Assembly (NCBI GenBank): GCA_965219385.1
Contig: CBDCNM010000002.1
Coordinates: 2,598,936-2,662,935 of the forward strand
Direction of reading: 5' to 3'
DNA: 64,000 nucleotides
DNA from: Candidatus Latescibacterota bacterium
GTDB taxonomy: Bacteria; Latescibacterota; UBA2968; UBA8231
In this document: piece after piece, positions 11,085-32,503 of the stretch
How positions within the stretch are numbered: position 1 is the first letter of the stretch
Layout: every line of letters begins with the position of its first letter
Made by a program: the position numbers and the translations under genes
The notes under the pieces: generated by a model
Databases searched by the model: none
What the model saw: only the letters and a program-made list of their open reading frames with translations
Told to the model about the DNA's origin: nothing

Positions 11085-13028
11085 ATGAACGAGAAAGAGG
11101 TTTCTTCCACCCCTGCCTCGGCCCCGCTGGCCTACAGCACGCCGGGACAGCTGGTGCAGGACTTTGCCAGCCGGGGGCTGGTCGTACTGGCCCCGGAAAG
11201 CCTGGGCGTTCCACCCGAGGTCCACGAGCGGATCTACCAGCGCGAAAAGCTGGCGGTCGGCGCTGGCGAGCTCGTTACGCCCGGACTCATTCCGGACGTG
11301 CTCGAGGTAATCAACGCCCCCGGCGTCGTCGCCGCCTGCAACCAACTGGCCGGCGAGAATTGGGCCATTGTGCCGTTCACCCACAATGCGACCTTCTCGA
11401 GCGGCGCCCGCGACCAGCACTGGCACAAGGACGACAACGGCCCGTTCAATAGCCGCAAACAGCGCCACCACCAAGCCGTGCAAATCGAAATGCTGTACTA
11501 TCCGCAGGCGGTGCGCGAGGACATGGGCCCGACGGCAACCGTGCCCTACTCCCACTACTGGACCTTCAACCACGAAGAAAACCACGACAATTTCGCCGGG
11601 GCCGATCACCTCGATTTCGCCTACCACCTCAGCGGCATGGAGGGCCAGCCGGTCAGCGGTCCAGATTCCCAATACGACCTCGACGATATTGTCCATCGCC
11701 GCACGGCGCACGACGTTCGCATGAGGGAGGCGATCGCCAACTTAAAGTGGCCGCTGGTACAGCCGTTTGAAGCGGCCCCGCTGCGGGCCGGCAGTATCGT
11801 GTTGTATTCGCACAATACCTTCCACCGGGGCAACCACCGCCGCGACGATTGGCGCACCTGGGAAGACAACCCGCGCTTTATGTGGCGTTTCTGGATCTAT
11901 CGCACCACCGATCCCGCCGGCGGCAATGGCTCGCCGGCCGAAGTGCGTTGGAACGGGCTCGGTGTGGATCCGCTGACCCATATCGATCTGACCGGGGCCA
12001 ACGACGACGTCACCGCGGTTTGGCGCTACCACCACCACTGGATACAGACGGGCCAAACGCCGCCGCCGCGGCCGGAGGCAGCGGCCCTATCGCCTATGGA
12101 ACGGGAAAGGGAGGCCAGCCGCTTATTTGCCCAGCTGCACGCCAAAGGCGAAGAGGCCGAGCCAGCGCGCATCGGCGCGGCCTACAAACTGGCCTCCATC
12201 GGCGACCCGGCGCTGGCGGTGCGGCTTCTCGGTCGGGCTCTGTACAACGACCGGGAGAGTGTGCGGCGGGCCGCCACCTATGGCCTGATTGCCGTTGGCG
12301 CGGAGGCTACCGGCGCCTTGCTCGAAGCGGCGAATTCACCCATCAAGTGGGTCCGCAAGGCGGGCGTGTACGGCCTGGGCGATGTCAGCCTCCTCAACGG
12401 CGAGGTTTTGCCGGCCGTGGTGACGCGCCTGAGAGAAGATCCGTCGGTATATGTCCGGGCCGTCGCCGCTGGGACCCTGGGCTGTCTCGGCCGCCGCGCG
12501 GTCGCCACCGGGGTCGGCCAAGCACTGATTCCCGCCTGCCTCGAAGCGCTGGCGCAGAGTCTGGGCCGCGAGGAAAACCGGCTGGCCATGGACCGGGCGC
12601 AAGGGCGGAGCATAAAGTTCGTGCGGCCCACCGATGAGTGCGATGTGTGCGAGGGCGGCGGCGTTGATTTTGACCTCGAGCGGTTCAAGCCGGTGCGCTC
12701 GGCGGTGCGGGAGAATGCGCTTTGGTCAATGGTCATTCTCTGTTCCCACGGCACCGCGATTACCGGCCCTGCGCTGGGGCCGACCGCACAGGCCCTGCAA
12801 GAGGTTATCCGCGGCGACGAGAACGCCATTTGCGTTGGCTTTGCCATGGACGCGCTGAGCCGCCTGGCCCACTTGCGTCCCCAGGGCGAGACGGCGGCAT
12901 CCTCCATCGGCGACCTGCAGGCGGATGTCTTGGCGCTACTCGAAGAGTCGCCCATGCGGTGTTGGGAAGCCCTGGTCCGCAGCGGCCTCAGCGCCAAGAC
13001 GGCGGCCGAGTTTGAGCGGGCTGGTTAG
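11085..13028 (+). CDS. PhyH-like dioxygenase domain fused to HEAT repeats
   Basis: WHKD and HRGN in the N-terminal half; VRRAATYGL, VRKAGVYGL, VRAVAAGTL HEAT-like repeats. Confidence 0.75.
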   Translation: MNEKEVSSTPASAPLAYSTPGQLVQDFASRGLVVLAPESLGVPPEVHERIYQREKLAVGAGELVTPGLIPDVLEVINAPGVVAACNQLAGENWAIVPFTHNATFSSGARDQHWHKDDNGPFNSRKQRHHQAVQIEMLYYPQAVREDMGPTATVPYSHYWTFNHEENHDNFAGADHLDFAYHLSGMEGQPVSGPDSQYDLDDIVHRRTAHDVRMREAIANLKWPLVQPFEAAPLRAGSIVLYSHNTFHRGNHRRDDWRTWEDNPRFMWRFWIYRTTDPAGGNGSPAEVRWNGLGVDPLTHIDLTGANDDVTAVWRYHHHWIQTGQTPPPRPEAAALSPMEREREASRLFAQLHAKGEEAEPARIGAAYKLASIGDPALAVRLLGRALYNDRESVRRAATYGLIAVGAEATGALLEAANSPIKWVRKAGVYGLGDVSLLNGEVLPAVVTRLREDPSVYVRAVAAGTLGCLGRRAVATGVGQALIPACLEALAQSLGREENRLAMDRAQGRSIKFVRPTDECDVCEGGGVDFDLERFKPVRSAVRENALWSMVILCSHGTAITGPALGPTAQALQEVIRGDENAICVGFAMDALSRLAHLRPQGETAASSIGDLQADVLALLEESPMRCWEALVRSGLSAKTAAEFERAG

Positions 13029-13030
13029 CA

Positions 13031-13061
13031 CCCTTGGGTCACCGCCGAGCTGAAAATCCAG
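13031..13061 (+). repeat. 31-bp direct repeat, left boundary of the CRISPR-Cas cassette
   Basis: CCCTTGGGTCACCGCCGAGCTGAAAATCCAG, identical to 30242-30272. Confidence 0.95.
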
Positions 13062-13071
13062 GCGACAACGG

Positions 13072-14427
13072 GCTTCAATGAGGCCGGGGCGTTTCCACCC
13101 CGGAAATCTCGCCGAAGATCGGCAAGAAAGGCCGGATTCAAACGCTTCAATGAGGCCGGGGCGTTTCCACCCCGGAAATCTGGACGATGCAGGGCCTCGC
13201 CCTGGTCGGTGGTATCGCTTCAATGAGGCCGGGGCGTTTCCACCCCGGAAATTTTCTAATCGTGTTCCGTATGTTTGGTATCAGAAATTGCTTCAATGAG
13301 GCCGGGGCGTTTCCACCCCGGAAATCGCGCCGGCCACTACTACGCGGTCACCTGGGCCGAGAAGCTTCAATGAGGCCGGGGCGTTTCCACCCCGGAAATA
13401 CTGATTGTTGAGGTAGAGACAGTCGTGGACATCCTGCTTCAATGAGGCCGGGGCGTTTCCACCCCGGAAATTTCGATGCGCCGTAAGACTGGAAAAAGAG
13501 CGGGCGGTAACGGCTTCAATGAGGCCGGGGCGTTTCCACCCCGGAAATCGCACCATCGACCCGCGCAATGCCCTGGCCTGGTTCCGCGCTTCAATGAGGC
13601 CGGGGCGTTTCCACCCCGGAAATCCGTTCGTCCGTAGGCTTGGTGTCGGCGTAGGTCCGGTAGCTTCAATGAGGCCGGGGCGTTTCCACCCCGGAAATCA
13701 TGTACGGCCCGTCCGGACGGCCACGGTCTACCAGCGCTTCAATGAGGCCGGGGCGTTTCCACCCCGGAAATCCGTTCGTCCGTAGGCTTGGTGTCGGCGT
13801 AGGTCCGGTAGCTTCAATGAGGCCGGGGCGTTTCCACCCCGGAAATCCCGTCGGCGTCAGCGTGTCTATATGCTCCTCGCAGGCTTCAATGAGGCCGGGG
13901 CGTTTCCACCCCGGAAATCCGCGGGCTCGGTGCCGGTCGTCGATCATGATATGATTGCTTCAATGAGGCCGGGGCGTTTCCACCCCGGAAATAAGGCCGC
14001 CTGCCTTGCCGGAAGATCGGTTCAATCCGCTTCAATGAGGCCGGGGCGTTTCCACCCCGGAAATTACACCGATCCCCGAACACCGGCGCGTGCAGTGGCC
14101 GCTTCAATGAGGCCGGGGCGTTTCCACCCCGGAAATAGTCCCGCCCGATGCCAGATAATAATCTGGCGCACAGGGCTTCAATGAGGCCGGGGCGTTTCCA
14201 CCCCGGAAATGAGGTCGAGGGGTCCGCTTCATGTTGCTGGCTGATAGCTTCAATGAGGCCGGGGCGTTTCCACCCCGGAAATGCGCGTCGAGGCCGCTCC
14301 CTCCCCCGCGAAAGCGGTCGCTTCAATGAGGCCGGGGCGTTTCCACCCCGGAAATGACAGATAGGCGGGTAATATTTTCGCTGAAGTGCGCGCTTCAATG
14401 AGGCCGGGGCGTTTCCACCCCGGAAAT
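13072..14427 (-). CRISPR. CRISPR array: 19 identical 36-bp repeats and 18 spacers of 36-41 bp
   Basis: Minus-strand repeat ATTTCCGGGGTGGAAACGCCCCGGCCTCATTGAAGC with hairpin CCGGGG...CCCCGG and a 3' ATTGAAGC handle typical of I-G; leader is on the cas2 side. Confidence 0.99.
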
Positions 14428-14636
14428 AGTCCCTGCGGAAGTCCTTGTGCGGCTTGGGCTTTCCACACGTTTTGCGAGCGCTCCTTCCTCAAATGAGGCC
14501 GGTCGGATATTCTGCTCCCAAACGCATATCATAGTACGACCTATCTCCTTGTAATACAAATAGAAAACGCAATGCGAGGGCTACCGGCAATTTTTCCTCC
14601 ACCGGAGCGCTCGCAGGGGACACGGCAAATGCCCCG
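14428..14636 (-). promoter_or_regulatory. CRISPR leader
   Basis: Non-coding DNA between cas2 and the first repeat; AT-rich core; 12-bp inverted repeat at 14473-14484 / 14604-14615. Confidence 0.75.
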
Positions 14637-14930
14637 CTAGACAATTGTGGCCTGTCGGGTCGGCACCTCATACGTTTTGCCCAGGCTTTCTACCAGGGGA
14701 TCGACCCGGTCGGCAGGCCCCAAGTCCACGATCAGGATATGATCCTCCGCCAACTCGATCAAGTCTTCCAAACGCGCGGTCATCTCGGCGCGCCGCCGAG
14801 CCGTCAGCCGACACTGGAAAACCGACAACTGCAGCCAGTATCCATAGCCTTTCATCACCTTAAACACGCGCCGCCAGCGCTTGGGCTCGGCTATGTCGTA
14901 CGCAACGATGTAGAGACGCTCGTTGGCCAT
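14637..14930 (-). CDS. cas2: CRISPR-associated endonuclease Cas2
   Basis: YIVAYDI, LQLSVFQC; 97 aa; adjacent to the array. Confidence 0.97.
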   Translation of the reverse strand: MANERLYIVAYDIAEPKRWRRVFKVMKGYGYWLQLSVFQCRLTARRRAEMTARLEDLIELAEDHILIVDLGPADRVDPLVESLGKTYEVPTRQATIV

Positions 14931-14935
14931 ATCGG

Positions 14936-16648
14936 CTACCGGGGAAGATAATGCGGATAGGTGACGATCTCGCCCTGCAGATGCCGTGCGAGCAACCTAA
15001 CCTGCACCTCTATCAGCCGCCGCATGGAGACGCGGTAGCCGAAAAGCGGATGGGTGGTTTCCTGGTCCATACGGCGCTCAAACGCAGCGATGAAGGCCTT
15101 GCGGCCGCCGGGCTTTAGCGAGCAGGCCGGTCCATTGAACACAAAGTCGCCCGGTTTGACCTCACCGTTGTTGATGGCCTGGATTACACAGGAATCCGCG
15201 ACGATGGGCCGGAACGGCTCCATCAGGTCGAGGGCCAGTGCCGGGCGGCCGTGGCGCGGGCGATGGTAGAGGCCCATGTAGGGGTCCAGCCCGGTCGCCG
15301 AGATCGTCGTCGTGAAAACCCGCGTCAACAAGGCGTAGGCCAGCGACAGCATCGCATTCACCGGGTCGGTGGGCGGGCGCCGATTGCGCTTTGAGAAGGA
15401 AAACGCGGCCATGTCCTCTTTCGCACCCGCGGCGAGCATATTCTCAAAGCAAGCGAAATAGATTGCCGCGGCCTCGCCCTCAATGCCCAGCAGTTGACGG
15501 TCGTCTCGGGCGCGGGGCACCCGCTGGACGATTCGCTTTAATCGGACCAGGGCTTCGTTTTTGGCCTCCGCGTCCCCATTGACGCGCCAGTTGCGGCGCA
15601 ACATCGTGCGCGAGTTGCGCACCTTTGCCGCCACCAAGTCGCGCGCAAATGCGAGGCTGCTAGGCTCGTCAAAGGCGGCCCGGTACTGCGCCTGGCGCAC
15701 GGCCACGTTGCCATTGCCGGTCCCCACGGTGTGGCCGAGAAACCAGCCGCCCGTGGAGAACCACGACACCGGAATCTCGGCGCGCATCAGCGCGTGCAGG
15801 GCCGGCGTGGTCACCGAGACCGGGCCGAACAGGGCAACCTGGGAAACGTCGATCATGGGCACTTCCACAGATTCTTCTTCGGTCTCCACCACCAGGCGCT
15901 CGCCGCTTTTGCGCAACCGCGCCCCCGGCGTTTGTACGTAGAGCGGCAGAGCCGGATCGTCGGACGGGTTCAGCGGGCGCGGCGGATACCCCTTGCGGAA
16001 CAGGTTGGTCTCGTCCGGCAGGCAGATTCCAGCAAGCGAACAGCGCGGGCACTTGGGGCTATTCTCGAGCGGCGGTGGCCGACGACCATTGGCCGCGGCG
16101 GAACGCAGGCCCGCAATCGCCTCCAGAGTCCGGGCGCGGAGTTCATCGTCGAGAACGACCTGCACCCGCTCGCGTGAGCCGGCGTACCAAAGCACGCCCT
16201 GCTCGACCTTGTAGCCATTGTCCTCAAGAATCATGGCCTGGGTGCAGATTTGGACGCGCTCGGGTTCGTAGGCGCCGGCGGCGACGTGGGGCCGCTTGCC
16301 TTTTTTGAAGTCCACGGGCATTGCGGTTCCCTCGTCGGCCTCCACCACATCCATCTTGGCGATAACGCCGAGACGCTCCGAGGAAAGGGTGACGGCCCGG
16401 GCGCGGGCCATATCCTCGCCGAGCTCGTCGGGCGCGGGCAAGCGGCCCCCACCTTCATCAACCCGGACATGGGCGCGCCGCCCCTCGGCCGTGTCCCCGC
16501 TCTCGGCCCACTCGCCTTCCACCCATTCCAAATAGGCCAGCCGGGGGCAATAAACCCATTCGTTGACCATGCGGGCCGGGGCCAGCGGCGTGTTGGCGTC
16601 GGCTGGCGGTGGGGGCAGGGCGAGGATGAGTTGGCGGTCGTGGGTCAT
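14936..16648 (-). CDS. cas1: Cas4-Cas1 fusion (type I-G)
   Basis: YCPR...DFKKG...KCPRCSLAGIC Cas4 domain; LLGIEGEAA, RNRRPPTDPVNAMLS, LALDLMEPFRP Cas1 domain. Confidence 0.97.
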   Translation of the reverse strand: MTHDRQLILALPPPPADANTPLAPARMVNEWVYCPRLAYLEWVEGEWAESGDTAEGRRAHVRVDEGGGRLPAPDELGEDMARARAVTLSSERLGVIAKMDVVEADEGTAMPVDFKKGKRPHVAAGAYEPERVQICTQAMILEDNGYKVEQGVLWYAGSRERVQVVLDDELRARTLEAIAGLRSAAANGRRPPPLENSPKCPRCSLAGICLPDETNLFRKGYPPRPLNPSDDPALPLYVQTPGARLRKSGERLVVETEEESVEVPMIDVSQVALFGPVSVTTPALHALMRAEIPVSWFSTGGWFLGHTVGTGNGNVAVRQAQYRAAFDEPSSLAFARDLVAAKVRNSRTMLRRNWRVNGDAEAKNEALVRLKRIVQRVPRARDDRQLLGIEGEAAAIYFACFENMLAAGAKEDMAAFSFSKRNRRPPTDPVNAMLSLAYALLTRVFTTTISATGLDPYMGLYHRPRHGRPALALDLMEPFRPIVADSCVIQAINNGEVKPGDFVFNGPACSLKPGGRKAFIAAFERRMDQETTHPLFGYRVSMRRLIEVQVRLLARHLQGEIVTYPHYLPR

Positions 16649-16658
16649 ATGATGGGGC

Positions 16659-17921
16659 CTAAAACCCGTTCTCTATAATGGTTAAAGGCAGCTTCAGTTC
16701 CAGTTGCGGCCAACGTGGGATATCCGAGTCGCAAAGGCCGAGGGCTGAGAGTGCTGATTTCCAAAACGACTCGAAAGACTCTTTCTTGACGGGCAGCAAG
16801 CCGTGAGCCAGCAGCGAGTTGTTCCGTTTTTGTAAATGGTCCTTGAGGCAGTCGTAAGTATGAGCTTGTTCACTAAGCGCCTCGTCTTCGCTGAACTCCA
16901 AAATCTGGAACAGATTCTGGATACCAAGCTTATATGGGCCATCGTCAGGTTGGCCAAGTTTCTCGATAACTTCTTCACGACGAACAGCCGGAAAACACTC
17001 TATCGAGACCTTGCCCAACTCAGCGCCGAACGCTTGCTTTACCAGTTGCTGACTGCGCAACTCGACGGCGCGGTAAAGCCTACCGACGGCGTCGTCATAG
17101 CGCGACTGTTTTGCACATCTGTCGGCGTTGGCAACGAGTTTAAGTAGAGTTTCTCGCCCCGCAGTCTGATCGTTGTGCTTCACCTGATCCCCGACAGCTT
17201 TCCAATGCTCGTGCAGAGATACTAGCCTTTGGTAGAGCGGATAGTCGAGCGAGAGTTCCAGTTTCTGGTGCCAACGGAGAAATTCACTGTGGGCTCTCTT
17301 AAAGTCGAACCGATCGGCCAGCCCAAGAGCCTTGGCGAGCCCGGCGAACGCCTCCAAGCGCGCGCGCTGCGACTCGTCACACTTTCGTGCGGCATCCTCG
17401 AGAACCGCGGCGGCGGAATCGGCGTAGAAACCCTCCAACAATCCGTTTGCACGATCAAGCTCTCGCACGGCATACGTAACCCACGGATTTTGGCATCTGA
17501 CGACAAGTTCGGAGCCGGTAACGACTGTACCGAGATTGTTGGAGTCGCGGCTGGAGCCGCCTACATAAGTAAAATTTTTGAACCGCTCAACAGCGGCAAG
17601 CATGAGTGCAGCCGACATGGCCTTGGTACCACCAGTGATGTCTATATACACCTCCTCCGGGTCCAGCTTGCGCTCGCTGAGCCACCTCTCTATATCGGTC
17701 CGAATCTCCTGATAGCAGATCCCGATATCTTGGTGATCTGAGATCTCCAAATACCCGTATTGAGGAACGTAACCCAGCCCGGGCAATATCTCATCTTCCA
17801 CCTGAGACCTTGAAGCGCCGGAGACAACAAATAGCGCGTAAGGGGGTCTCCCTTCACCCAGTACTTTCCGCACCGGCTCGGGTGAACCTCCAACACTGGC
17901 GATCATGCCGCGTAGCCTCAT
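16659..17921 (-). CDS. CARF-HEPN effector (TIGR02710/Csm6-like), putative cOA-activated RNase
   Basis: SVGGSPEP and DITGGTKAMS CARF motifs; RYDDAVGRLYRAVEL; C-terminal RNNSLLAH (R-X6-H). Confidence 0.85.
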   Translation of the reverse strand: MRLRGMIASVGGSPEPVRKVLGEGRPPYALFVVSGASRSQVEDEILPGLGYVPQYGYLEISDHQDIGICYQEIRTDIERWLSERKLDPEEVYIDITGGTKAMSAALMLAAVERFKNFTYVGGSSRDSNNLGTVVTGSELVVRCQNPWVTYAVRELDRANGLLEGFYADSAAAVLEDAARKCDESQRARLEAFAGLAKALGLADRFDFKRAHSEFLRWHQKLELSLDYPLYQRLVSLHEHWKAVGDQVKHNDQTAGRETLLKLVANADRCAKQSRYDDAVGRLYRAVELRSQQLVKQAFGAELGKVSIECFPAVRREEVIEKLGQPDDGPYKLGIQNLFQILEFSEDEALSEQAHTYDCLKDHLQKRNNSLLAHGLLPVKKESFESFWKSALSALGLCDSDIPRWPQLELKLPLTIIENGF

Positions 17922-18868
17922 CGGTCGGTTTCCTCTCGCCAGATCATGGGGACAGCGAGTCCGAAGGTCGCTTGGACCGGGTGGATACCACGTGCTGCAA
18001 GCGATTCACGAGCGCTCTTGCTTAGCAGGCGTTCCGGCCCAATAGGGGCACCGTAGAACGGTTTCGGGGGGTGTTTCGTGCGGAAGCAGGCACCGGCCGC
18101 CAGCATGACCTGTGGACGTTTGAACACGGCGCTAGAGTGGAACTCCGGAGCCAGTTTTCCGTACTTGACGAAGAGTCGCCAGAAACCTTCCACCGGGTCA
18201 GTGGCCGCCGGCTGGAACGTTGAGAGGGATGTGAATCCGTCGGCTCCATGAACATTATCCAGTTCGGGACTAGGGGTTGGATCGCCGTCTAACTCGAAGC
18301 CGCCGTGGCCCACCGAGGCATCGGCACCATATCCGGTCTGCCCCAGTATTTCCAAGGCTTCAAGCAAAATTTGCAGGCCGCCATCGGCAGCGCGAGCAAA
18401 AATGGTCAAGTCGCCTTCGGACTTGCTGAGCTTTGAAAACGGCACTTCAAAGAGTTCACCACCAGCACCTGTGGTATTGGAAACGCGGGAGATGGTGTTG
18501 CGCAACCGCACGCGATCGTGGATAGAGATACCGGGATCTTCTAGATTGGGTTTCTTCCCCTCCTGGACTCGACAAAAATCGGCCATAGTCATCCAGCGAT
18601 ATTTCTTGACGTTCTTGCGCTTCTCTGGAGGCCAATCCCACCACAACGGCAGGCTAGCCGGTGCTGGCAGTGAATCGCCGGGAAAGGCGTCGGAGATGAC
18701 AAACAGCGGCTCCTGAGCGACCCACGGATCCAGGAAATCCCTCTGGAGCGCGTCATGACCACGAGAACGCGCCCATGCACACGCCATCGCGCCAAGTAGC
18801 GAATCCGCCTGCCAAGGCGTGGTCCAAACCCCGAGGGGATTCAACCTCAGGCGGAACAATGTGTCCAT
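17918..18868 (-). CDS. csm4: Type III Cas5-group RAMP, Csm4-like
   Basis: ADSLLGA, ISDAFP, glycine-rich GYGADASVGHGGF loop. Confidence 0.85.
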   Translation of the reverse strand: MDTLFRLRLNPLGVWTTPWQADSLLGAMACAWARSRGHDALQRDFLDPWVAQEPLFVISDAFPGDSLPAPASLPLWWDWPPEKRKNVKKYRWMTMADFCRVQEGKKPNLEDPGISIHDRVRLRNTISRVSNTTGAGGELFEVPFSKLSKSEGDLTIFARAADGGLQILLEALEILGQTGYGADASVGHGGFELDGDPTPSPELDNVHGADGFTSLSTFQPAATDPVEGFWRLFVKYGKLAPEFHSSAVFKRPQVMLAAGACFRTKHPPKPFYGAPIGPERLLSKSARESLAARGIHPVQATFGLAVPMIWREETDR

Positions 18869-19512
18869 GGTTTACCATCCAATTTGAAATCGTTGAAGCT
18901 CACCGCTCCCGAACCCCGGCTCGTCCCGCCCCCCAGGCCCGTCATCTGCACTAGATTCAAGCCGTCGGCGACGACTGCTTGGAAAGCTTCACTGTCTTGA
19001 TGCGAGTTGCCGTTGTGGTCTGTGTACGAGAATTGTCTGTCGAGATCGAAGACTTGCAGAACGATCTGCATCTTGAACTCCGTACCCTCGATGACCCGCT
19101 CGTTTGACCGCGGATGTTCGGCCGCGCCAGTTTGGCGGTTTATGACGTTTTCCGTCTTGTTCTCAATGCGACCGCCCTTGAGGAGCCGGCCGTCACGGAC
19201 GATGATGCGAGAAGGGCCAAGATTGCTCCGGGGGTTCATGTGCGCTCCAAACAATCGACAGACGGGACACTCTCCACATCCACAGGGCCTGTCTTTTCTC
19301 TCTCCACCGAATTTGCCCAGCTTTTTCTCTAACTCGCCTCGCATCTTCCCCTTGAGCGACGAGCCTGGAATGTAGGGATCGCGAGTTTCCGGGTTCTTGA
19401 TCACCGGATTATCGGAGCCGCCAATTGCCAACTCGTCTTGCGAACCCCCGATATGAAGGCCGCTTTCGCAACGAGCGGTAAAGGTAATGGTGTGAATGGC
19501 AGTTCTTTGCAT
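18847..19512 (-). CDS. csm3: Type III Cas7-group RAMP Csm3
   Basis: GLHIGG, IGGSDNPV (catalytic Asp position retained), PYIPGSSLKGKMR, GLGGGTSRGSG. Confidence 0.95.
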   Translation of the reverse strand: MQRTAIHTITFTARCESGLHIGGSQDELAIGGSDNPVIKNPETRDPYIPGSSLKGKMRGELEKKLGKFGGERKDRPCGCGECPVCRLFGAHMNPRSNLGPSRIIVRDGRLLKGGRIENKTENVINRQTGAAEHPRSNERVIEGTEFKMQIVLQVFDLDRQFSYTDHNGNSHQDSEAFQAVVADGLNLVQMTGLGGGTSRGSGAVSFNDFKLDGKPWTHCSA

Positions 19513-19513
19513 G

Positions 19514-20044
19514 TCAGGAATCCTTCCTCATGTATTTGGCCCCAAAGCCGACCAGCGCCTCGAAATGTGGTAGAAAGCCATCCAGAAAGGCCCTTTCCGG
19601 CTCTTTCGCGGAGCCTACCCGTTTCACGTTGTCATCGATGAAATCTTGAAATTCTCCCGGAATTTTGTGGGCCGCGACGGCGTTCTGAGCATGGTAACAG
19701 AGTGCCTCGAAGCCAGCAGCTACTTGATGCCAGCTTTCGTTGTCAACTTTCAATTGACGTTCAAGCTCGCGGCAGTGATTGAAGAAACGGCGCATCTGGC
19801 CAGTAGTCAGCTTGGGGTTAGACCGATATGCAAGCTGTTGGGCCAAAGGATCGACGTTTTTCTTGGAGACGAAGTCGGGTTGAAGATAGCTTCGCCCTTG
19901 GTTATCAGTCTCGAAATACGAGCCTGGAAATTTTGGCAAGGCTTCCCTTGGCGGCCTGCTACGATCACCGCCACCGCGATCTCGCCGTTCTCGTTGTTTA
20001 GGTTGAAATCCCGCCTTTTCCATAGCATCCTCCATGCTATTCAT
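19514..20044 (-). CDS. csm2: Type III small subunit Csm2 (Cas11)
   Basis: LTTGQMRRFF and HFEALVGF motifs; lies between cas10 and csm3. Confidence 0.88.
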   Translation of the reverse strand: MNSMEDAMEKAGFQPKQRERRDRGGGDRSRPPREALPKFPGSYFETDNQGRSYLQPDFVSKKNVDPLAQQLAYRSNPKLTTGQMRRFFNHCRELERQLKVDNESWHQVAAGFEALCYHAQNAVAAHKIPGEFQDFIDDNVKRVGSAKEPERAFLDGFLPHFEALVGFGAKYMRKDS

Positions 20045-21506
20045 CGCGTCTTTCCTTTCTCGGTCGTGTTGCCAACAAGGCATAGCGGAGACTTGCCGCC
20101 AATTCGTTTACGCGCTGTTCATCGCGCTCTAGATATTCGAGCACATGGTTCGCCCAGCGATGAAAGTCGGTGTGGCGCCGGGGCACGTTGCGCTCGATTT
20201 GATAAGCCCAACGAGCCGCTCGCAGAGGCTTGCCGCTCTCCGCGAGACGCAGCAAACGATGCAGCAGCGAGCGAGGAGCCACGTCGGCTTCAACCCAGTC
20301 TGCCAGCCGCTTACCATCGCCTACCACAGATTCATGTTGCTTCCAACTCCAATCCGTCCCGAGGGCGGCGCACCGATTCTTGCCCGGACGTTGCTTGGCC
20401 GACTCCAAGAGTTCCTCCGCACGCTCGACTGCGTGACGAATCGGTATGCGGTAAGGGGTCAGAGCGATTCCAGCGCTTAAGGTTAGCGGTGAATACTCTT
20501 GGGCCGGACCCACCTCGAACTCTCTTGCCAGAGACCCGGCAAAGTCGAGCACGATATTCCAGGGGCCAACCAGCAGCAGATCATCCCCGCCGGCATACAG
20601 CGTGTAGATTAAAGGCCATGACTCTGCCAACAATTCCTGAATTGTCTGCCCGAAGAACTCATGCAAACTATAACTGAAAGACCGCAGCCGGTTGTACGAT
20701 CGGTCTTCGCCGGCAACTTGTCCGACCCGGACACCCATGTCGTCCACATCGGCTTTCAGCACGGCCAGACGACGGTCGTTGCGGGCTTGCTCGGCGATCT
20801 CCTCGAATGTCAGCGGTTCGCCGGAATCGGAATGGCGCGGTATCCAGCGGCCCACTCGGAAGGATTCCGGCGTCCGGCTTTCTAATGCCTCAAAGGCGAC
20901 GCCCAGCGCTCGCGCCGAGCCGCCGCCGGGGCGCATCCATTTCCACCGTGTCAGCTTTTCACCGAGCTTGCGGGCCTCCAGACAGCTTCTACAATGTAGA
21001 ACCTCCTCACCTTCGTCCTGTACGCTCTGCTGCCCCGGAGATTGGCGGCAGACTTCACACGGCTCGTCAAGTGGAGATTGGCTCCAACTATCCGGGTTCC
21101 AACCGCCCCTGCTTTGCAGCATGGAAACGCCTATACGGCGCTTCTGAAGTTCCAGACGAGCGCGGGCGGCGAGTGGCGTCTCACCCCAGCCCAGCGAGAA
21201 CTGGACTTCTCCGCCGGATTCACCCCACAGCTTGCGTTGCAAGCCGGAACGAATCTCCTCAAGGCGAACGGGGTCGGTATCAGGTGGAATCCGCATCAGG
21301 AAACCACCTCCGCCCCGGACCAGAACATCATCGTCGGCAATACGAAATCGTTCCTTTATCGTCCAAAGTGCGGCATGTTCGAAGAGTTCGAGCAGGAACG
21401 ACCGGGCTCGCAAGCGCTTCGCCTGCGCCTTGCCCGCGCTCTTCACACCCAGCACATAACGCTGGATTCCAGAAAAATCACCAGCCAAATAGACTGCTTT
21501 GCTCAT
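20037..21506 (-). CDS. cas10: Compact Cas10 lacking the HD nuclease domain
   Basis: Starts at Palm1 GDFSGIQ, then LRARSF, CxxC/CxxC, KADVDDMG, YAGGDDLL; 489 aa. Confidence 0.93.
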   Translation of the reverse strand: MSKAVYLAGDFSGIQRYVLGVKSAGKAQAKRLRARSFLLELFEHAALWTIKERFRIADDDVLVRGGGGFLMRIPPDTDPVRLEEIRSGLQRKLWGESGGEVQFSLGWGETPLAARARLELQKRRIGVSMLQSRGGWNPDSWSQSPLDEPCEVCRQSPGQQSVQDEGEEVLHCRSCLEARKLGEKLTRWKWMRPGGGSARALGVAFEALESRTPESFRVGRWIPRHSDSGEPLTFEEIAEQARNDRRLAVLKADVDDMGVRVGQVAGEDRSYNRLRSFSYSLHEFFGQTIQELLAESWPLIYTLYAGGDDLLLVGPWNIVLDFAGSLAREFEVGPAQEYSPLTLSAGIALTPYRIPIRHAVERAEELLESAKQRPGKNRCAALGTDWSWKQHESVVGDGKRLADWVEADVAPRSLLHRLLRLAESGKPLRAARWAYQIERNVPRRHTDFHRWANHVLEYLERDEQRVNELAASLRYALLATRPRKERRDE

Positions 21507-21575
21507 AGATTAGGGTATCCAACCGGAATGAACGGTGATGTCAGAAGTTCAACATGCGCCTTAAACCCACTGCGT

Positions 21576-21983
21576 TTATGGAATGACTTCAAATCCCACC
21601 TGTCGGAAGTGATGGTCCAACGTCAATGCCCGGCAAATTCGCAGTTCTCGCATGAGAACAAAGCTACAGCAGTCGGTAAAGGAGAATTCCTTATCCCGAT
21701 AGCCGAAGAAGAGCGACCGTGCCCGTTCTCTTCGCGGTTCGTCAATGGACTCGATCCGCAGTCGAGCCGAGCCGTCGATTTGCAGCCACCAAGCTTCAGC
21801 AGCTTTAAGACCAAGGCGGAACCGGATGGTGGTCAGAGTCTCGTCGATCACATAGTCGGTCGTCGTCAGTATGCCTCCGGACGACAGCCATTGATCCCGA
21901 GCTTCCCGTACAGCCGAACCTGCGGTATCGCGGCTATCCGCAGCCGCAACCCATGCGGCCGTATCCACGAACATTTGCTTCAC
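21576..21983 (-). CDS. vapC: PIN-domain toxin (VapC family)
   Basis: FVDT, VIDE, SFTDCCSF, TLDHHF. Confidence 0.92.
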   Translation of the reverse strand: MKQMFVDTAAWVAAADSRDTAGSAVREARDQWLSSGGILTTTDYVIDETLTTIRFRLGLKAAEAWWLQIDGSARLRIESIDEPRRERARSLFFGYRDKEFSFTDCCSFVLMRELRICRALTLDHHFRQVGFEVIP

Positions 21984-22225
21984 CTGTACAGCACTTCGTC
22001 ATGCCGTGCGGCAGCGTCACCCGATTCAGATGCCCCAACGGCTGGAGCCTGGTACAGCGAATCCGATTCCAGTGGCGCGCTTTCGATAGGTGGACTGCCA
22101 ACCGGGACGATGTCGAAAGCCGGACGACTGCGGTAAAGAACGGTAAACCGCTCCCCGTGTCTCACTTTCTCGACGACATCCTGCAGTCGCTCTCGGAGCT
22201 GTTTGGCGCTGATAAATTCTGGCAT
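21980..22225 (-). CDS. Phd/YefM-family antitoxin
   Basis: ISAKQLRERL..VVEKV..GERFTVL...RP; overlaps the toxin start by 4 nt. Confidence 0.85.
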   Translation of the reverse strand: MPEFISAKQLRERLQDVVEKVRHGERFTVLYRSRPAFDIVPVGSPPIESAPLESDSLYQAPAVGASESGDAAARHDEVLYR

Positions 22226-22240
22226 CGTAGCACCTTTTTG

Positions 22241-22262
22241 AAGTTTAACTTAAGATAAACTT
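22241..22262. promoter_or_regulatory. Palindromic putative TA operator overlapping a candidate promoter
   Basis: AAGTTTAACTTAAGATAAACTT near-palindrome; minus-strand TTGCTT-N17-TAAGTT. Confidence 0.55.
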
Positions 22263-22280
22263 TTATCGAAAGCAATACAA

Positions 22281-23909
22281 TCACCTGAACTCTACTGGAT
22301 GTGGACGTGCGAACATTCCAAGGCCAAAATGACAGGCATAGCCAAGAGCTAAAGGACCCTCGATTGGTTCAGGAAAACTCAGGCGCAGCAAGGCCCCTTG
22401 CGCGTCGGGTTGTTTCTCTCGCCCCCGCGAACGGAACCGGTGAAAATGGACTGGTCGTCGGGAAACACCATGGACCTCGATGTCGGGCAAGCGCTCGACT
22501 TGAACAGGCCCAATACTCGATCCAGACGCGATCTCTCTACGCTTCCAAAGCCGATGTACCTCGCCCTCATAGCCAGCCTTTTTCAAATGACCGGCCGCCA
22601 AAAAGGGCGTTACACTGACCCATTCAGCGGAGCGGCCAAATAGCCGCGATGTGTCCGCAAAGTCCTCCGGGCGGCCAAAGCCCTCTAGGGCCAGCCGCCA
22701 TTCTTGGCGGCCGGTTTCTTCGTTCCCTTCTTCTCCGCTGGGATCTTTTTTGCCAACCCACAATCGGGTCAAGCGATCCAGCTTCTCGCGCACTTCGGCG
22801 TCGAAACCTTCCTTTGCGTAAACCGATATGTGGTCAATCCAGCCATCGCCATCGGCGTCTTCGGGCAGCCAAAAAGCGTGAGAATGCCGACCATCTCGCA
22901 AAGGTTGGTCGTCGGGGCCACGGCCCGAGATCACCGACGGCGCTTTGGGTTTCTTGTTCTCCCAACCGAACTTGGAAAGCGCGGCCAGCCGCATGAGTTC
23001 GCCGATCTTAACTGCGTCCTCAATGCGAGGTTGGGGACGGCCAGCTAGGAGATAGCGGGCTACGGTGAAACGACTGCGGTCATCAATCGCTTCATGTCTC
23101 TGTACGGGCCGCGGAACGGGCGACAGTGGTGAACGTGTGTAAACGATCTCGCGTGCGGCCGGCGGCCGGTTCCAGCGGTATTTCTGGTAATCGGCCGTAT
23201 CGAGTGTCAAGGCGTCGGACAAGCGTTCGGGCAGGGTCGGCCCGAACGCCTTGTTGTGCGCTCTTTCGAGTGCTTTGGGCGTGGGGGGCCTCTTGCCGGA
23301 AGCAGCGGCGCGGGAACGCTCTGCATCGTCGGCTTCCTCTAACAGGCGCGTGCGCTCCACCGCATAGTCCCTGGCACTGCGCGGCGCGAGCACCCGCACC
23401 GCCTCCCCATCAGTGGCCCCATTTTGGCCGACCGGGCGGCAGTTTGCCTCTCCTCCCCAGTCAGTTGTCGCTTCGCAGTCAACCCAACTCTCGGCACGGC
23501 CCAAGTAGCCGATCCCCTCGGCGAGATCGGCCGCTAATTCAAAAAGTTCGGCGTCCAAGTCGAGTTCCGGCCAAACCGTTACGATCTTCTCGCCTTCGGG
23601 AAGGTGTGCGAAGGCGTCAAAGACGAGCGTCGTCTTCAGCGGCGCGGGCATGTAGTGTTGGGTGTGTGCGTGGATTGCGCCTTCGGGCAGGCGATAGATC
23701 GGCGCATCTTCCGCGAGCGCGTCCATTAGCCGGGCGAGCGCGTCCTCGGACCAGCGCACCCGGTCTCCTTTGCGCCAATAGCTAGCAACGAGCGCACGGA
23801 GAATGCGCCACGGCTCCGGCGGCCAAGCGACATCAGCTTCGTTGACATGGCGTCCCCACGGCGTAGCGTGATAGCGGCCCGCGGGGAAGCTGAAAGTAAG
23901 CGCGAACAT
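22281..23909 (-). CDS. csb2: Type I-G Csb2 (Cas5/Cas6 fusion)
   Basis: FPAGRYHATPWG...WPPEPWRILRAL, YLGRAES, GPLALGYACHFGLGMF. Confidence 0.95.
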   Translation of the reverse strand: MFALTFSFPAGRYHATPWGRHVNEADVAWPPEPWRILRALVASYWRKGDRVRWSEDALARLMDALAEDAPIYRLPEGAIHAHTQHYMPAPLKTTLVFDAFAHLPEGEKIVTVWPELDLDAELFELAADLAEGIGYLGRAESWVDCEATTDWGGEANCRPVGQNGATDGEAVRVLAPRSARDYAVERTRLLEEADDAERSRAAASGKRPPTPKALERAHNKAFGPTLPERLSDALTLDTADYQKYRWNRPPAAREIVYTRSPLSPVPRPVQRHEAIDDRSRFTVARYLLAGRPQPRIEDAVKIGELMRLAALSKFGWENKKPKAPSVISGRGPDDQPLRDGRHSHAFWLPEDADGDGWIDHISVYAKEGFDAEVREKLDRLTRLWVGKKDPSGEEGNEETGRQEWRLALEGFGRPEDFADTSRLFGRSAEWVSVTPFLAAGHLKKAGYEGEVHRLWKRREIASGSSIGPVQVERLPDIEVHGVSRRPVHFHRFRSRGREKQPDAQGALLRLSFPEPIEGPLALGYACHFGLGMFARPHPVEFR

Positions 23910-23916
23910 TCGAGAC

Positions 23917-27172
<3,256 letters not shown>

Positions 27173-27183
<11 letters not shown>

Positions 27184-29656
27184 ATCCATCCTCCTGTTCT
27201 TCTTTTGCCGATGCCCGCCAATCCGCAATCCGCACCAGTGCCTCCAGCCACGCGAGCCGGAAAGGGCCATACTGGGAAAGCAAATTGCGTGTACGCTCGG
27301 CCCAACTCGCGCCGGTTTCTGGATGCTCCCCCAACTCCATCACGGATAGTGTGAGCGGCCCCCCTGCCCAAGTTTCTCCACCACCTAAGTCAACCGGCGG
27401 GACCACATCGCCCTCCCATATGCCGCGGACAAAACGGGATTTATCCTCTCCTGTTGCCGGACGTTCGGCGGGAAGCGGACGCAAATTCAGGCGCACCTTG
27501 CCGTGATGGGCGGCGATCAGGTACGCGACCAGATCAGCCTCCCGTGCCCAGTCCGCTTGTGAGAGGAACGCGAGCGCAGACGCCAGTTCGTGCCGTAAGT
27601 ACGCCCGCCCCTTCATACGGTCGTACTTCGGGGCCTTGGCCAACAGACCCTCTGGCCGTGAATCAGACTCAGGGTCATTGGCAACCATTCGCGCCTGAAA
27701 CTCAGCGTGTGCCTTGCCGAGGTCGTGCCAGTATGCAGCCTGGACAATCGCGGCTTTCCAGTCTCCACAAACGCCGAGGCCATCGCACAGTAGTCCAGCT
27801 TTAAAAGCCACGTTGTCCAGATGCTTCACCAGTCCCACGAATCCCCTCTGTCTGCTGCTGTCGGGATCGGCGTCATTCGACTCGTCTGCTGCTGACAACT
27901 CCGCTTCTAGCTCCACAGGCTCGACCGCTGCTTTTATGTCCTGATCAAACCCCGTCTCCGGCGCGTACCCTCCGGTACTTGCAGAAACCAACAAGACCAA
28001 ACCCGGCCAAGGTTCCTCCCGGAACGCGGTCCAAGCCTTCATGTTATATCTCGCCTGCGGGTCTATGCGGAACACCCGCTGCCCTTCCTTTTGCCGGACA
28101 TTCTTGAGCCAGTCTCGGGCTTGTCTTATCGGAACTGCACAAAGCTCGTCCCGCGTCGGCGCGAGCTGATCCTCTAGTCCAGCCGACAAATCGCGCCAGA
28201 AGACGCGAATATCAGTATCCTCGGCATCGCGGATATAGGGAGCAATATCGACATCAAAGCCAGTCAAATCTGGATCAGTGTCGTATAGATCTATCATATC
28301 CCTAGATCGTATCACCCGCTGATGGTCGCAGTCATCGGGTGCAGGCGGCGCGAGATTGGACGGTCGAGCGTCCGTCAACGCGGCAATCCGCTCGCGTCCG
28401 ATTTTGAGCTCGTCAATCTCATAAGGAGCGGCCAGCAAATCATCGAGACCGCCACCGATGAGATCAATCCAGCGAATCGTCCCGCCGCCGGAATCGTTCA
28501 ATTCTCCGTAGCGGTTCACCCGACCAAACCGCTGGATGAGGGACGAGGCGGGCGCGAGTTCGGTGAGCATGACCGCCGCCGAAAGATCGACACCCGCTTC
28601 AATCGCCTGCGTCGCAACGACGATCAAGTCTTTCGCCTCCCCAGGCTGCGGCAGCTTATCCATCTGCGATTTGCGATCTTTGGGCCGAAAGCGCGAGTGG
28701 ATGAGGGCGAGGCGAGCGGGCGAATCCTTTTTCTTGAGTGCCTTATGCACAGCTTGAGCTCGGACGACGGTATTGACTACCACGAGCGTCGTGCGGTTTT
28801 CTTGATGCAGCCGCAGAGTTTCTTCCGCCAACGCCGTGGCGTAAGCATCCAGACCGGCCTTCTTGGCACTCACCGGCGCAACGGACGCCTGCTGAATCGG
28901 CTTGGGTGCGTCAATCAGCTTGAGGACATGCGGCGACTGCCCGTCTTCAGGGAAATCGTCTGGAGCGCACCAAACCTTCGGACTTTGCTTGAAATCAACC
29001 GTGCCTAGCCAGTCTGGATGAAGGGTTGCCGACACCCAAAGACTGCGCGAGGCAATCTCCGTCCCCAATTTGCGACGAAAGCCTTCAAGTTGTGTGGAGG
29101 TTGCCAATCCCGAGCCCATGAGTTGCACCTCGTCAAAGACCCACTGCGCGTCGTTGTGCAGCAACGCGAAGTCCACCGGCCAGCGGAAGCGGCTCATGGC
29201 GTACCCCCGCATCAGAGCGCGACTGAGTAGCATGTCTTGGGTCCCAATCAGGATGGCTGGATGTTCGGGTCTTTCAAACCAGCGCGGCTCGTCAATGCCA
29301 CCCAAGCGCGGCTTGTCAATGCCACCCATAAGAACATGGACTCCGGTTTGGGGATCCGGGAGGCGCGATTTCCAGTCCGTATTTGCCTCTCCTAGCCGTC
29401 GCAGCCATTCTCTTACATTCCGCTCCGTCTGGTCAACGAGCGTGCGCATGGGCAGGCAATAGACGAGGCGACGCGGCAGTGCATACTCAGCGGCGATGTG
29501 CTGCCAAGCCCAGCCGAGTACTACCGCGGCGGTCTTGCCGAGGCCGGTCGGAGCAATAAGCGCGTCCGGCCAAGCTCGCTTTGCTAGCGCCTGCTGATAG
29601 GCGAAAGGGCTGATATCTTTGCCGAATGCTGTGGAGAAGAATTGATCGAAGGTCAT
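27173..29656 (-). CDS. cas3: Type I-G Cas3 (N-terminal helicase, C-terminal HD nuclease)
   Basis: APTGLGKT, DEVQ, SAT, TQAIEAGVD, QRFGRVNR, HDLGKA, HELASA, HHG. Confidence 0.96.
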
Positions 29657-29668
29657 ACACCTATTCCA

Positions 29669-29881
29669 TTATTTATTATTGTTTTTCCCCGCGAGAACTT
29701 CGCCCACGATTTGGTCGATTTCCCGCTTGCTTTTCCTCAGCAAGTCGATTTCGTAGGGCGTCAGCATCCGGTAAGCGGGCGAGGTGCCCATTATTCGCTT
29801 GAGTTTGGCCGTCGAAGGAGTGAGTCCAGTGTTCTCACCATCACTTTCTAAAGGCTGCTCCGCGTCGTTTCCTGAGTTCAT
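29669..29881 (-). CDS. Small hypothetical protein (70 aa) at the head of the cas operon
   Basis: AGGAG RBS 8 nt upstream; ends 12 nt before the cas3 start. Confidence 0.55.
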   Translation of the reverse strand: MNSGNDAEQPLESDGENTGLTPSTAKLKRIMGTSPAYRMLTPYEIDLLRKSKREIDQIVGEVLAGKNNNK

Positions 29882-30241
29882 GCGATTGCTCCTGTGAGGG
29901 TTTAACTTGGCATCCCTGCCGCTGCATTCGCGACAAAACCGCTGACGCGAGGGTACTCAGCGGCGCATGGACTTTCCGCGGTCGCGCTCACCATTTGAGC
30001 CATGCCGGGTCTTCCAGATGGATCGTCACACTATCGATATTCATATTGGTCTCTCGCTGAACTTCGCTTTGGGCTCTCCCAACTTCCAGCCGGGAGTCGG
30101 CGCCGGATCGGAATGCTTTGCGTGATGAGACTTGCTTGGTTAAATATATGTGCAGTGGCGATAAGCCCCAAGTTGGCTGTCGACCTGACTGGCGTAGCGC
30201 CGGTCCATTCCGTATTTTGAATCCCTGGCGAACCCGCGCTT

Positions 30242-30272
30242 CCCTTGGGTCACCGCCGAGCTGAAAATCCAG
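30242..30272 (+). repeat. 31-bp direct repeat, right boundary of the CRISPR-Cas cassette
   Basis: Identical to 13031-13061. Confidence 0.95.
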
Positions 30273-30296
30273 AATCCAACCAAGGAGAGCCAAGCC

Positions 30297-31295
30297 ATGA
30301 GTGAACAAGAAGGCCAGGCAAGAAAAAAAGCCGCCATGCACGTCGGCGTCCAGGGCATAGGGACCTCCAGACACGAGCTGCAATTCCTGGTGCGCCACGG
30401 CGTCACCCACATGAACGCCGCGGTGGACGGCTTCGACACGGATACCCTGGCGCGCCACCGGGAAGAGGCCGCCGCCGAAGGGATCAGCCTGGAGGCCACC
30501 CACGTCGGCATCGCCGAGAGCATCACCCTGGCCGAGGACCCCCAGCGCGATCGCGATATCGAGGCGCTGGGCCGCCTGATCGAAAACGCGGGCAAGGCCG
30601 GCCTTAGATCCCTGTTCTACAACTTCTGCATCCTTACTCACCAGCGCACCGAAGCCACCCCTGGACGGGGCGGCTCGATGTACAGCACCTTTGATATGTC
30701 CAAGTACGACAACAAGACCCTGACCAAGGCCGGCCGGGTGAGCCGCGAAGAGGCCTTTGAACGAGCCGCCTATTTCCTCGAACGGGTGATCCCCGTGGCC
30801 GAGGAAAACAAGGTGCAGATGGCCTGCCACCTCAACGATCCCCCGGCCCCGGTCCTGCGCGGAGTGGAACGGTGGAATTACCCGGTCTTCGAAGGGTTGA
30901 AGCGCTTTTCCGAGCTGGTGGACAGCCCGTATCACGGCTTCAATTTCTGCTGTGGAGTAGCCTCGGAGGGATTGGAGGATCCCGGCACGGAGCTTTACGA
31001 AATCGTGCGGTATTTCGGCGAGAAGAAGAAGATCTTCAACGTTCACTTTCGCAATATCAAGGGCGGGCTGCACCACTTCCAGGAGGTCTGGCCCGATGAA
31101 GGGGTCGTCGATATGTACAGGCTGGCCCGGGTGTTCAGGGATGTGGAGTACCCCTACATGCTGATGCCCGACCACGCGCCGGATCACCCGGACGACGTAC
31201 CGCCCCCCGAAGGTTCCGGGCGGGTACGCCAGGCCTGGGCCTTTCAGTTCGGCTATATCATCGCCCTGGTCCAGGCGGTGAATTCGGAAGCCTGA
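30297..31295 (+). CDS. Mannonate dehydratase (UxuA)-like protein
   Basis: YFLERVIPVAEE...HLNDPP, HFRNIKG, PDEG.VDM, MPDH. Confidence 0.85.
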   Translation: MSEQEGQARKKAAMHVGVQGIGTSRHELQFLVRHGVTHMNAAVDGFDTDTLARHREEAAAEGISLEATHVGIAESITLAEDPQRDRDIEALGRLIENAGKAGLRSLFYNFCILTHQRTEATPGRGGSMYSTFDMSKYDNKTLTKAGRVSREEAFERAAYFLERVIPVAEENKVQMACHLNDPPAPVLRGVERWNYPVFEGLKRFSELVDSPYHGFNFCCGVASEGLEDPGTELYEIVRYFGEKKKIFNVHFRNIKGGLHHFQEVWPDEGVVDMYRLARVFRDVEYPYMLMPDHAPDHPDDVPPPEGSGRVRQAWAFQFGYIIALVQAVNSEA

Positions 31296-31390: not shown

Positions 31391-32503
31391 CTACTCGACT
31401 ACGAATGCATGAATCGTGGCCGCCTGCATGGCCTCCCAGTCCACTTCGAGGCCCAGTCCCGGACCCTGGGGCGCCTTCACGTAGCCATCGGGCTGCGGGC
31501 GGATGACATCCTTCATCCCGTACTCGTACGGCTCGTAGGGAACCGATTGCTCGAAATAGGAGCAGTTGTCGTGGGCCAGCATGAGGTGGAGATTGGCCGC
31601 CGACACCAGGCTGTAGCCCCACGACATGATTTCGCACTTCATACCGGCGGCTTCGGTAAGGGCGATCGCCTTGTTGGTCTGGGTGATCCCGCCCATCATG
31701 GCCACGTCCGTCCTGGCGCGTCCCCATGCCTTTGCAAGGATGGCTGCGGCAAAGGTGTGGAGGTCCTGGAACCAGTTGCCGGACGGAAGGATGGGGATCT
31801 TGACCCGGCTTGTCAGCTCCTTGTAGCCATCCAGGTCCGAGTCGTGCAGGGGGGCCTCGAACCAGGTGAAGCCCATCGCTTCGAGCTCCTGGGCGACCCG
31901 CAGCGCACCGTCGCGGTCGTAATTGTTCTCGGCGTCGAGCATGAAGGCGACGTCGTTGCCAGGGTAGTGCTTCCGGACGGCCCGGGCGAGTTCGAGATCC
32001 AGCTCCGGGATGCACCAGGTGTGGAACTTGATGGCCTTGAATCCGCGGGCGATGAACTCCTCGGCATTCTTCAGGTAGGAGTCGACGTCCTCAAAGAGCG
32101 GGGTACTGGCGTAGGCCGGCATTTTGTCGCACGCCCCCCCCAGTAGCCGGTAGATGGGCAATCCCGCCACCTTGCCGGCCAGGTCCCACAGGGCGATGTC
32201 GATGGCGGCGAGCGCCTGGGGCGGCAGCGGAAAAACCCGCGGCCGGATCTGGTGCCAGATCAACTCCCGCAGCAGCGGATCCTTTCCTATCAGGATGGGG
32301 GCCAGGTGGCGTATCGCCTCGGCGGTATAGCGCTCGAAATCGAACGAGGTCGCGTTCCAGACGCCTGCTACGCCCTCGATGCCTTGGTCGGTGTAGATCC
32401 TGACGATGGTGTTGGTGGAGTACTGGTCGGGTAGATCGTCCGACCACGTGAAGCGGTCGACCGGCGGCGCCACGGTTTGCACTTCAACTCTGGTGATTTT
32501 CAT
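31391..32503 (-). CDS. Mandelate racemase/muconate lactonizing enzyme family protein
   Basis: AIDIALWDLAGKVAGLPIYRLLGG, WFEAP, PQGPGLG; probable start MKITRVEV. Confidence 0.9.
   Translation of the reverse strand: MKITRVEVQTVAPPVDRFTWSDDLPDQYSTNTIVRIYTDQGIEGVAGVWNATSFDFERYTAEAIRHLAPILIGKDPLLRELIWHQIRPRVFPLPPQALAAIDIALWDLAGKVAGLPIYRLLGGACDKMPAYASTPLFEDVDSYLKNAEEFIARGFKAIKFHTWCIPELDLELARAVRKHYPGNDVAFMLDAENNYDRDGALRVAQELEAMGFTWFEAPLHDSDLDGYKELTSRVKIPILPSGNWFQDLHTFAAAILAKAWGRARTDVAMMGGITQTNKAIALTEAAGMKCEIMSWGYSLVSAANLHLMLAHDNCSYFEQSVPYEPYEYGMKDVIRPQPDGYVKAPQGPGLGLEVDWEAMQAATIHAFVVE

Follow-up and report, generated by a model that had tools for sequence, protein, structure and literature searches.

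How does a whole CRISPR-Cas locus that carries no recombinase gene come to lie between two letter-perfect copies of a 31-bp sequence, and does such an arrangement mean that the locus is, or ever was, a mobile element? The question is raised by a window (the whole 64,000-nucleotide stretch analyzed, from a Candidatus Latescibacterota genome) in which an earlier note, made from the letters alone, had seen the att-like ends of an excisable defence cassette mobilized in trans. A plainer reading is preferred here, with a probability of roughly 0.55: that host recombination once duplicated 31 bases upstream of a uxuA-like gene as the locus entered a cassette-free chromosome.

The cassette, its repeat and its surroundings

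The features are as follows (X19 to X23 are public sequencing runs, treated further below; handles beginning with G denote other genomes):

11085..13028, plus strand: left flank gene, chromosomal, 647 aa; its product has HEAT repeats and matches PhyH weakly (E 5e-5)
13031..13061, plus strand: left 31-bp copy, which the X21 and X23 strains lack here
13062..13071, no strand assigned: array trailer-flank remnant of 10 nt; in X23 the same letters are preceded by at least 255 nt of other sequence
13072..14427, minus strand: CRISPR array of 19 identical 36-nt repeats and 18 spacers of 36-41 nt
14637..16648, minus strand: cas2 and the cas4g/cas1g fusion (TIGR01573 and NF049935, above cut-off)
16659..21506, minus strand: nested III-A-like module (CARF-HEPN, csm4, csm3, csm2, cas10)
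21576..22225, minus strand: Phd antitoxin and PIN toxin pair
22281..29656, minus strand: type I-G effector genes csb2, cas7g, cas8g1 and cas3g
29669..29881, minus strand: ORF of 70 aa outside any known family; 13 of the 14 related loci have it at their cas3-side end
29991..30171, minus strand: gene relics at the inner right end (a membrane-protein-like piece, 29991-30042, and part of a Phd gene, 30053-30171)
30242..30272, plus strand: right 31-bp copy; X19, X20 and X21 show it joined to the uxuA-like gene, as does X23 by depth
30297..31295, plus strand: right flank gene, UxuA-like (mannonate dehydratase family), below NCBIfam cut-offs

The layout described in the earlier note proved accurate in every distance: the two copies are exact and in plus orientation (two 31-mer matches arose in 0 of 100 shuffled windows), the left one beginning 2 nt past the stop at 13028 and ending 10 nt from the trailer repeat at 13072, the right one ending 24 nt upstream of the ATG at 30297, and removal of the cassette in silico leaves the flank genes 57 bp apart. 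As direct repeats at both ends of the locus, they have a length that falls within the 8-60 bp given for att cores in the available text on such elements (PMC5704250). The 5.8-Mb genome holds two copies, even when 7 mismatches are allowed, and each 14-20-mer within the 31-mer likewise occurs exactly twice. Among 180 loci searched at up to 7 mismatches only the five holding the window's own copies contained it, and it was found neither in the metagenome contigs scanned nor beside the orthologues of either flank gene in loci of other species. The 31-mer lacks dyad symmetry (z +1.25) and forms no hairpin, and inverted repeats were looked for at the inner ends of the cassette, where none were found. 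The genome-wide count, which the earlier note had offered as a way of exposing a multicopy IS end or REP-type element, thus leaves its reading unharmed, since the 31-mer is a unique pair with no hairpin and no inverted repeats, and an origin as IS end, MITE or REP was discarded on the same grounds. Two further candidates were dropped, namely a decayed CRISPR repeat, because 13% and 60% of random genome stretches align equally well, and a self-targeting spacer recombined with its protospacer, because no in-register CRISPR repeat precedes either copy and none of the 18 spacers matches the rest of the genome over more than 16 nt. A promoter and terminator scan of 29600-30320 returned nothing.

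What lies between the copies is a type I-G system, with cas3g, cas8g, cas7g (csb1), csb2, the cas4/1 fusion and cas2 above cut-off, plus an array whose trailer would be at 13072 and whose leader would point towards cas2, to judge from the repeat end and leader position. Spacers 8 and 10 (39 nt, window 13586-13847) are identical, a sign of recombination inside the array. The nested module is better called III-A-like than III-A (cas10 with HD and palm, csm2-csm5), as its 489-aa cas10 has the GGDD motif and lacks the HD dipeptide, and no ORF for csm5 lies between csm4 and the CARF gene; the same cas10 is 87-90% identical in G072, G062, G074, G055 and G057. The cas8g1 gene lacks one nucleotide of an A run near 26533 and is thereby split; since its frame of about 800 codons is open in G072 and G062 and the contigs of all four runs compared carry the extra base at this A run, the split would be a recent frameshift or a homopolymer error. 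The 70-aa ORF, a possible candidate regulator, has no Pfam or PADLOC match and is 50-87% identical among the related loci, including those whose cas3 is only about 30% alike. The GC content of the cassette is slightly below that of the flanks (58.9% vs 61.3-61.5%). Recombinase and transposase families gave no match among the 14 ORFs scanned inside it (NCBIfam, Pfam), which bears out the claim that no integrase is encoded there in one sense only: Cas1 is itself an integrase by mechanism, and the claim is therefore limited to site-specific recombinases and transposases.

The two flank genes, introduced in the earlier note as co-oriented and metabolic, are indeed both on the plus strand, but "metabolic" is a loose word for a HEAT-repeat protein with a weak PhyH match and a UxuA-like protein below cut-offs. 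DNA matches to the left gene occur in 21 of 40 relatives (19 of them long), and the two genes are neighbours neither in 14 left-gene loci nor in 80 uxuA loci of other species. Most of the close uxuA relatives are from records of Poribacteria or Latescibacterota, and many of the runs with a small share (not among the runs compared) are sponge metagenomes; the bacterium is probably a sponge symbiont of the Latescibacterota. Its genome gave ten matches to tyrosine integrases and one to a resolvase, and a 72.6-kb island (C2:2528346-2601029), bounded by a 61-bp tRNA-like repeat and with a tyrosine integrase at its left end, has its right end at about 2034-2094 of the window, which puts the cassette about 11 kb outside it. 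The genome also has comEC and dprA family genes, common genes that lend weak support to the recombination reading set out below. Around its three other array regions (1 kb on one side vs 20 kb on the other) no repeats of at least 14 bp were found. An enolase-superfamily ORF (31391-32680) has three tandem 24-nt units at its start (window 32613-32684).

Related loci and a second bracketed insert

Other species of the source genus were not returned among the relatives searched, and the nearest kin of the locus are found elsewhere in the family: 3 of the 75 family genomes, which belong to a single other genus, encode a cas3g 90% identical to that of the window, cas4/1 is 85-94% identical in 11 of the 75, in four other genera, and much the same I-G plus III-A cassette (86-89% nucleotide identity) occupies another chromosomal site in G072 and G062. 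Because these sequences are shared with other genera, horizontal spread of the locus, and its horizontal acquisition here, is likely as far as sequence comparison goes. In G071 (C1:1205746-1209686) the G072/G062 site holds a collapsed remnant, in which the small cas3-side ORF and a truncated cas3g are joined to a single degenerate repeat. Modules swap within this family of I-G loci. No relatives of cas3g were found in viral contigs.

If the 31-bp pair were part of how such loci move, one might expect other members to be bracketed too. In 14 related loci, the 3 kb past the trailer and the 3 kb past the cas3-side ORF were compared with each other for exact repeats; 11 of these loci could be judged (G015 has no matching array, and in G057 and G059 the cas3 end and the trailer, respectively, are off the contig); ends more than 3 kb away would escape this test. 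Bracketing repeats of at least 14 bp were absent from 10 of the 11, and the remaining one, G072, lies between two long paralogous genes (which we take to be AAA/PD-(D/E)XK genes); short isolated repeats were seen in 0 of 11. Neither a cognate integrase nor a related intact element turned up for this site, and the trailer junction of the window was found neither in the genome and metagenome contigs nor in 131 other genomes of the class.

The right end of the cassette is more suggestive. Window positions 30053-30171 match the 5' part of a second Phd antitoxin gene together with the region before it, the counterpart of which lies directly beyond the array trailer in G079 (E 7.6e-13) and G074 (E 2.3e-10), and by eye also in G018, G055 and G057, and within the operon in G017. 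At the aligned place the window retains 10 of the first 18 repeat bases, as do 1% of random positions. Joining the two ends of the cassette would restore the Phd-then-trailer order of G079 and G074, and the relic thus fits a circular intermediate of any origin, so far as its sequence goes; leftovers of an older, second array would account for it just as well. In G074 (C1, about 7152000-7153000) a phd-PIN pair 95% identical to window 21576-22225 sits inside the CRISPR array itself, separating blocks of 90 and 3 repeats, and small arrays adjoin the same pair in G055 and G057; in this family, array trailers and toxin-antitoxin pairs seem to move together.

The genome also contains a second insert of comparable form. 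At C1:732217-759706, 27.4 kb lie between two exact, genome-unique 36-bp copies of the pfkB 3' end, with genes of the surface-protein type (TPR, FG-GAP/ASPIC, FlgD-Ig, PPIase); none of the 13 ORFs scanned there matches a recombinase. A ribosome-binding-like site and an ATG come after the right copy, and in 19 loci of other species pfkB and the gene that follows the insert are not adjacent. As the 31-mer and the 36-mer are unrelated, one integrase cannot explain both duplications. Together, the Phd relic and this insert would favour some circular or att-like history.

The junctions in public runs

Four runs were compared (X19, X20, X21 and X23, of 24 listed), all as Logan contigs, whose graphs, according to the available part of their description, are built at k=31 and simplified (10.1101/2024.07.30.605881). 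This has a consequence that is easily overlooked: at k=31 neither an empty allele nor a circle junction has any 31-mer that the integrated form lacks. In X19, a 1000-nt contig with 0 differences starts in the left gene, crosses one 31-mer and continues into the uxuA-like gene, just as an "empty site" should look. The cas contigs of the same run, however, are identical to the window and stand at the same depth, while the spacers and both cassette junctions are missing, and so is the cassette-end edge, which an excised circle would keep; the read-through is for that reason more likely a product of graph cleaning, and the contig was dropped as proof of an empty site. If the recombination reading set out below is right, the case also cautions that, where a repeat has the length of the assembly k-mer, a contig reading through it does not testify to an empty site. 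A small unexplained excess of depth (6.7 vs 5.5) remains in the bin 13052-13067 of X19. In X20, the 31-mer is entered from the left gene at a depth of 8.3 and from the cassette end at 9.3 (by subtraction), and the outgoing 31-mer and uxuA contig have a depth of 10.2, where two separate alleles would sum to about 17.6; these depths fit one integrated genome carrying both copies. X19 and X20 do not count as independent support, as they come from one study and may include the source sample.

The two remaining runs, X21 and X23, come from two further studies and are the informative ones. By sequence they belong to the species of the window, the uxuA-like gene differing by 2-5 substitutions per 450-760 nt, and it is here that the left copy disappears. 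In both, the left-gene contig parts from the window within the stop codon, at 13026, without ever reaching the 31-mer; the bin depths agree to the decimal with the absence of the left copy. The right junction of X21 is nevertheless that of the window letter for letter (the 30 nt before the right copy are identical, and one contig spans 30077-30827). On its left side, the contig meets a CRISPR repeat about 75 nt past 13026, by a joint with a side of 29 nt, which is weak evidence, joints with a side shorter than 30 nt being able to arise from repeats. The III-A module has no cover in X21, where a joint skips it, and variants skipping it (16674/6 to 21606) are present in X19, X20 and X21. In X23, the 11 nt before the trailer repeat are entered from at least 255 nt of other sequence, so that the left junction of the window would cut a longer flank exactly at the repeat end. 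This trailer contig stands at a depth of 38-41 vs 18-21 for the flanks, about twice as much, and may come from another organism or site, in which case it would fit a fixed element end at a second target; its flank motif was sought in 132 genomes and not found.

Among the contig pieces listed, 0 of 4 runs show the left 31-mer leading into the array, and the two-copy state was seen only in the strain type of the window itself; gaps in contig cover at the left junction and the spacers were not counted as absences. The X21 and X23 data indicate a locus that is settled at this site in the species: its right junction is constant, its left junctions and its content vary. An element with att ends would be expected to keep both wherever it sits; the left copy is absent from two of the four runs (X21 and X23). 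What the earlier note got right, then, is a unique repeat at both edges of a locus that was likely acquired; the step from there to an att-like, excisable and trans-mobilized cassette is not supported, given this absence, the 10 of 11 related loci without a repeat, the missing dyad and the lack of the 31-mer beside orthologues of either flank gene.

A probable recombination scar, its rivals and what they would mean

Under the preferred reading, the 31-mer would originally have belonged to the chromosome, ahead of the uxuA-like gene. A cassette-bearing strain would have supplied donor DNA that recombined with a cassette-free chromosome through homology shared on the uxuA side, and the left end of this DNA would have been joined illegitimately to the final base of the 31-mer, with the trailer repeat 10-11 nt away; a circle closed at the same joint, followed by one crossover in the 31-mer, would be an equivalent route. 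Either would place the 31-mer on both sides of the locus without a dedicated integrase. The cassette-free allele that this requires is a putative state, from which the four bases leading from the stop to the left copy are likely to derive, as they are unlike both the right end and the X21/X23 path. Either the left copy was gained in the window strain or it was lost in those of X21 and X23. Flank genes that lie apart in the 14 and 80 loci of other species, and the doubled depth of the X23 trailer contig, count against this reading. Anchor-assisted illegitimate recombination of this general kind has been described (PMC2884548, PMC5361080), and its likeness to the present case lies in one fixed homologous and one variable junction and in module replacement at a resident locus; the cases in the available parts of these papers, however, concern replacement or displacement, whereas the 31-bp duplication here would follow from a joint inside the anchor, and none made in this way was found in the literature covered. 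With the RecA threshold at roughly 30 bp, as given in the accessible text of one of them (PMC2884548), the 31-bp pair could permit rare deletion of the locus by host enzymes.

Could the 31-mers instead be the attL and attR cores of a tyrosine integrase that is lost or acts in trans, the strains of X21 and X23 having lost attL later by trailer-side replacement? Such a decayed integrative element is unlikely in our view, yet it is the main rival, and several findings speak for it: exact brackets of att-core length, ten tyrosine-integrase matches and a resolvase match, cassette ends that when joined recreate the order of G079 and G074, and a second insert that duplicates the last 36 bp of the conserved pfkB gene in a classic att layout. 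Set against this are the left copy absent from two of four runs, the related loci that sit at other sites without repeats (10 of 11), a target that is a non-conserved intergenic stretch with no dyad, end relics of antitoxin and membrane genes rather than of an integrase, a 31-mer and a 36-mer that are unrelated (local score 5-7), and the distance of about 11 kb from the neighbouring integrase island. CIMEs, which the available text of PMC5704250 defines as cis-mobilizable elements without integration or transfer genes that keep attL and attR, resemble the locus in having cargo between short direct repeats with no recombinase or transfer gene inside (14 ORFs scanned here); they differ in that here neither a cognate integrase nor an intact relative was found, the left copy is strain-specific and the target is not a conserved gene end. 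As two of the defining features were looked for and found wanting, we do not class the locus as a CIME.

The left junction may also be asked to prove its own existence. An assembly chimera, in which the left flank of an empty allele was joined to the array of a filled one and the left copy exists in no single molecule, would account for the junction being seen in none of the four runs, and the repeat length equals a common assembly k. It is nonetheless improbable, for the window spacers are missing from the very contigs whose cas genes show 0 differences, which indicates that short array paths are being removed there (simplification of such graphs is described in the available part of 10.1101/2024.07.30.605881), the X20 depths of 8.3, 9.3 and 10.2 fit one genome rather than the 17.6 or so of two alleles, and the left junction shares one base with the array flank, which would leave an assembler nothing to switch on. 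Very improbable is the notion that the Cas4/1-Cas2 ruler integrated a long array-cas molecule at a repeat-like site, copying about one repeat length: the duplications are near repeat size (31 vs 36, and 36 in the second insert), a toxin-antitoxin pair does lie between repeats in the G074 array, and Cas1-Cas2 integrates in vitro at non-CRISPR sites with repeat-length spacing (PMC6698737), but 31 is not 36, the 31-mer is not significantly repeat-like, the substrates described in the accessible text of that study are only spacer-sized, and two strains lack the left copy. We regard as very improbable, too, though by a hair less so, a lineage-wide habit of moving large blocks by recombinase-less circles that leave 31-36-bp duplications at gene ends, the CRISPR circle being opened at its trailer and joined by its own Cas4/1-Cas2, that is, a self-mobilizing CRISPR-Cas. 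It is kept in view because of the right end that belongs beyond a trailer, the G074 toxin-antitoxin pair between repeats, the 36-bp duplication of the second insert, equal in length to the repeat, and the X23 trailer contig, which could show the same end at another target.

Whole CRISPR-Cas loci as islands already have a published precedent. GI-24 of Vibrio cholerae and V. metoecus is an island of about 17 kb with a whole CRISPR-Cas system, an integrase and conserved attL/attR, the excision of which was assayed by nested PCR, and V. albensis has an integrase-less 12-kb I-E region at the same site (all from the available text of PMC6360697). The likeness lies in size, in completeness and, for V. 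albensis, in the missing integrase; GI-24, however, is of type I-E and not I-G plus III-A, and it is set apart by its integrase, its conserved att sites and its assayed excision. By analogy, the locus might be said to work like an integrase-less CRISPR island. Casposons, marked by a solo Cas1, a family B polymerase and terminal inverted repeats, make target duplications of about 14-15 bp. The cassette resembles them in encoding Cas1 and in having a duplication at its ends, but the ORF scan and inverted-repeat search found no polymerase B among the scanned ORFs and no terminal inverted repeats, and its Cas1 is part of a Cas4g/Cas1g adaptation fusion. In the open-access text searched (supplements excluded), no paper on this locus was found, and none on an I-G/type III hybrid in a sponge.

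The locus is a testable case of how complete CRISPR-Cas loci spread between genomes without mobility genes: its right junction is fixed, its left junction takes three different forms across strains of one species, and its effector modules can be swapped. If the best explanation is true, it would be an ordinary example of host recombination moving defence loci; if the circle or the Cas1 reading were true, it would amount to a new route of CRISPR mobility.
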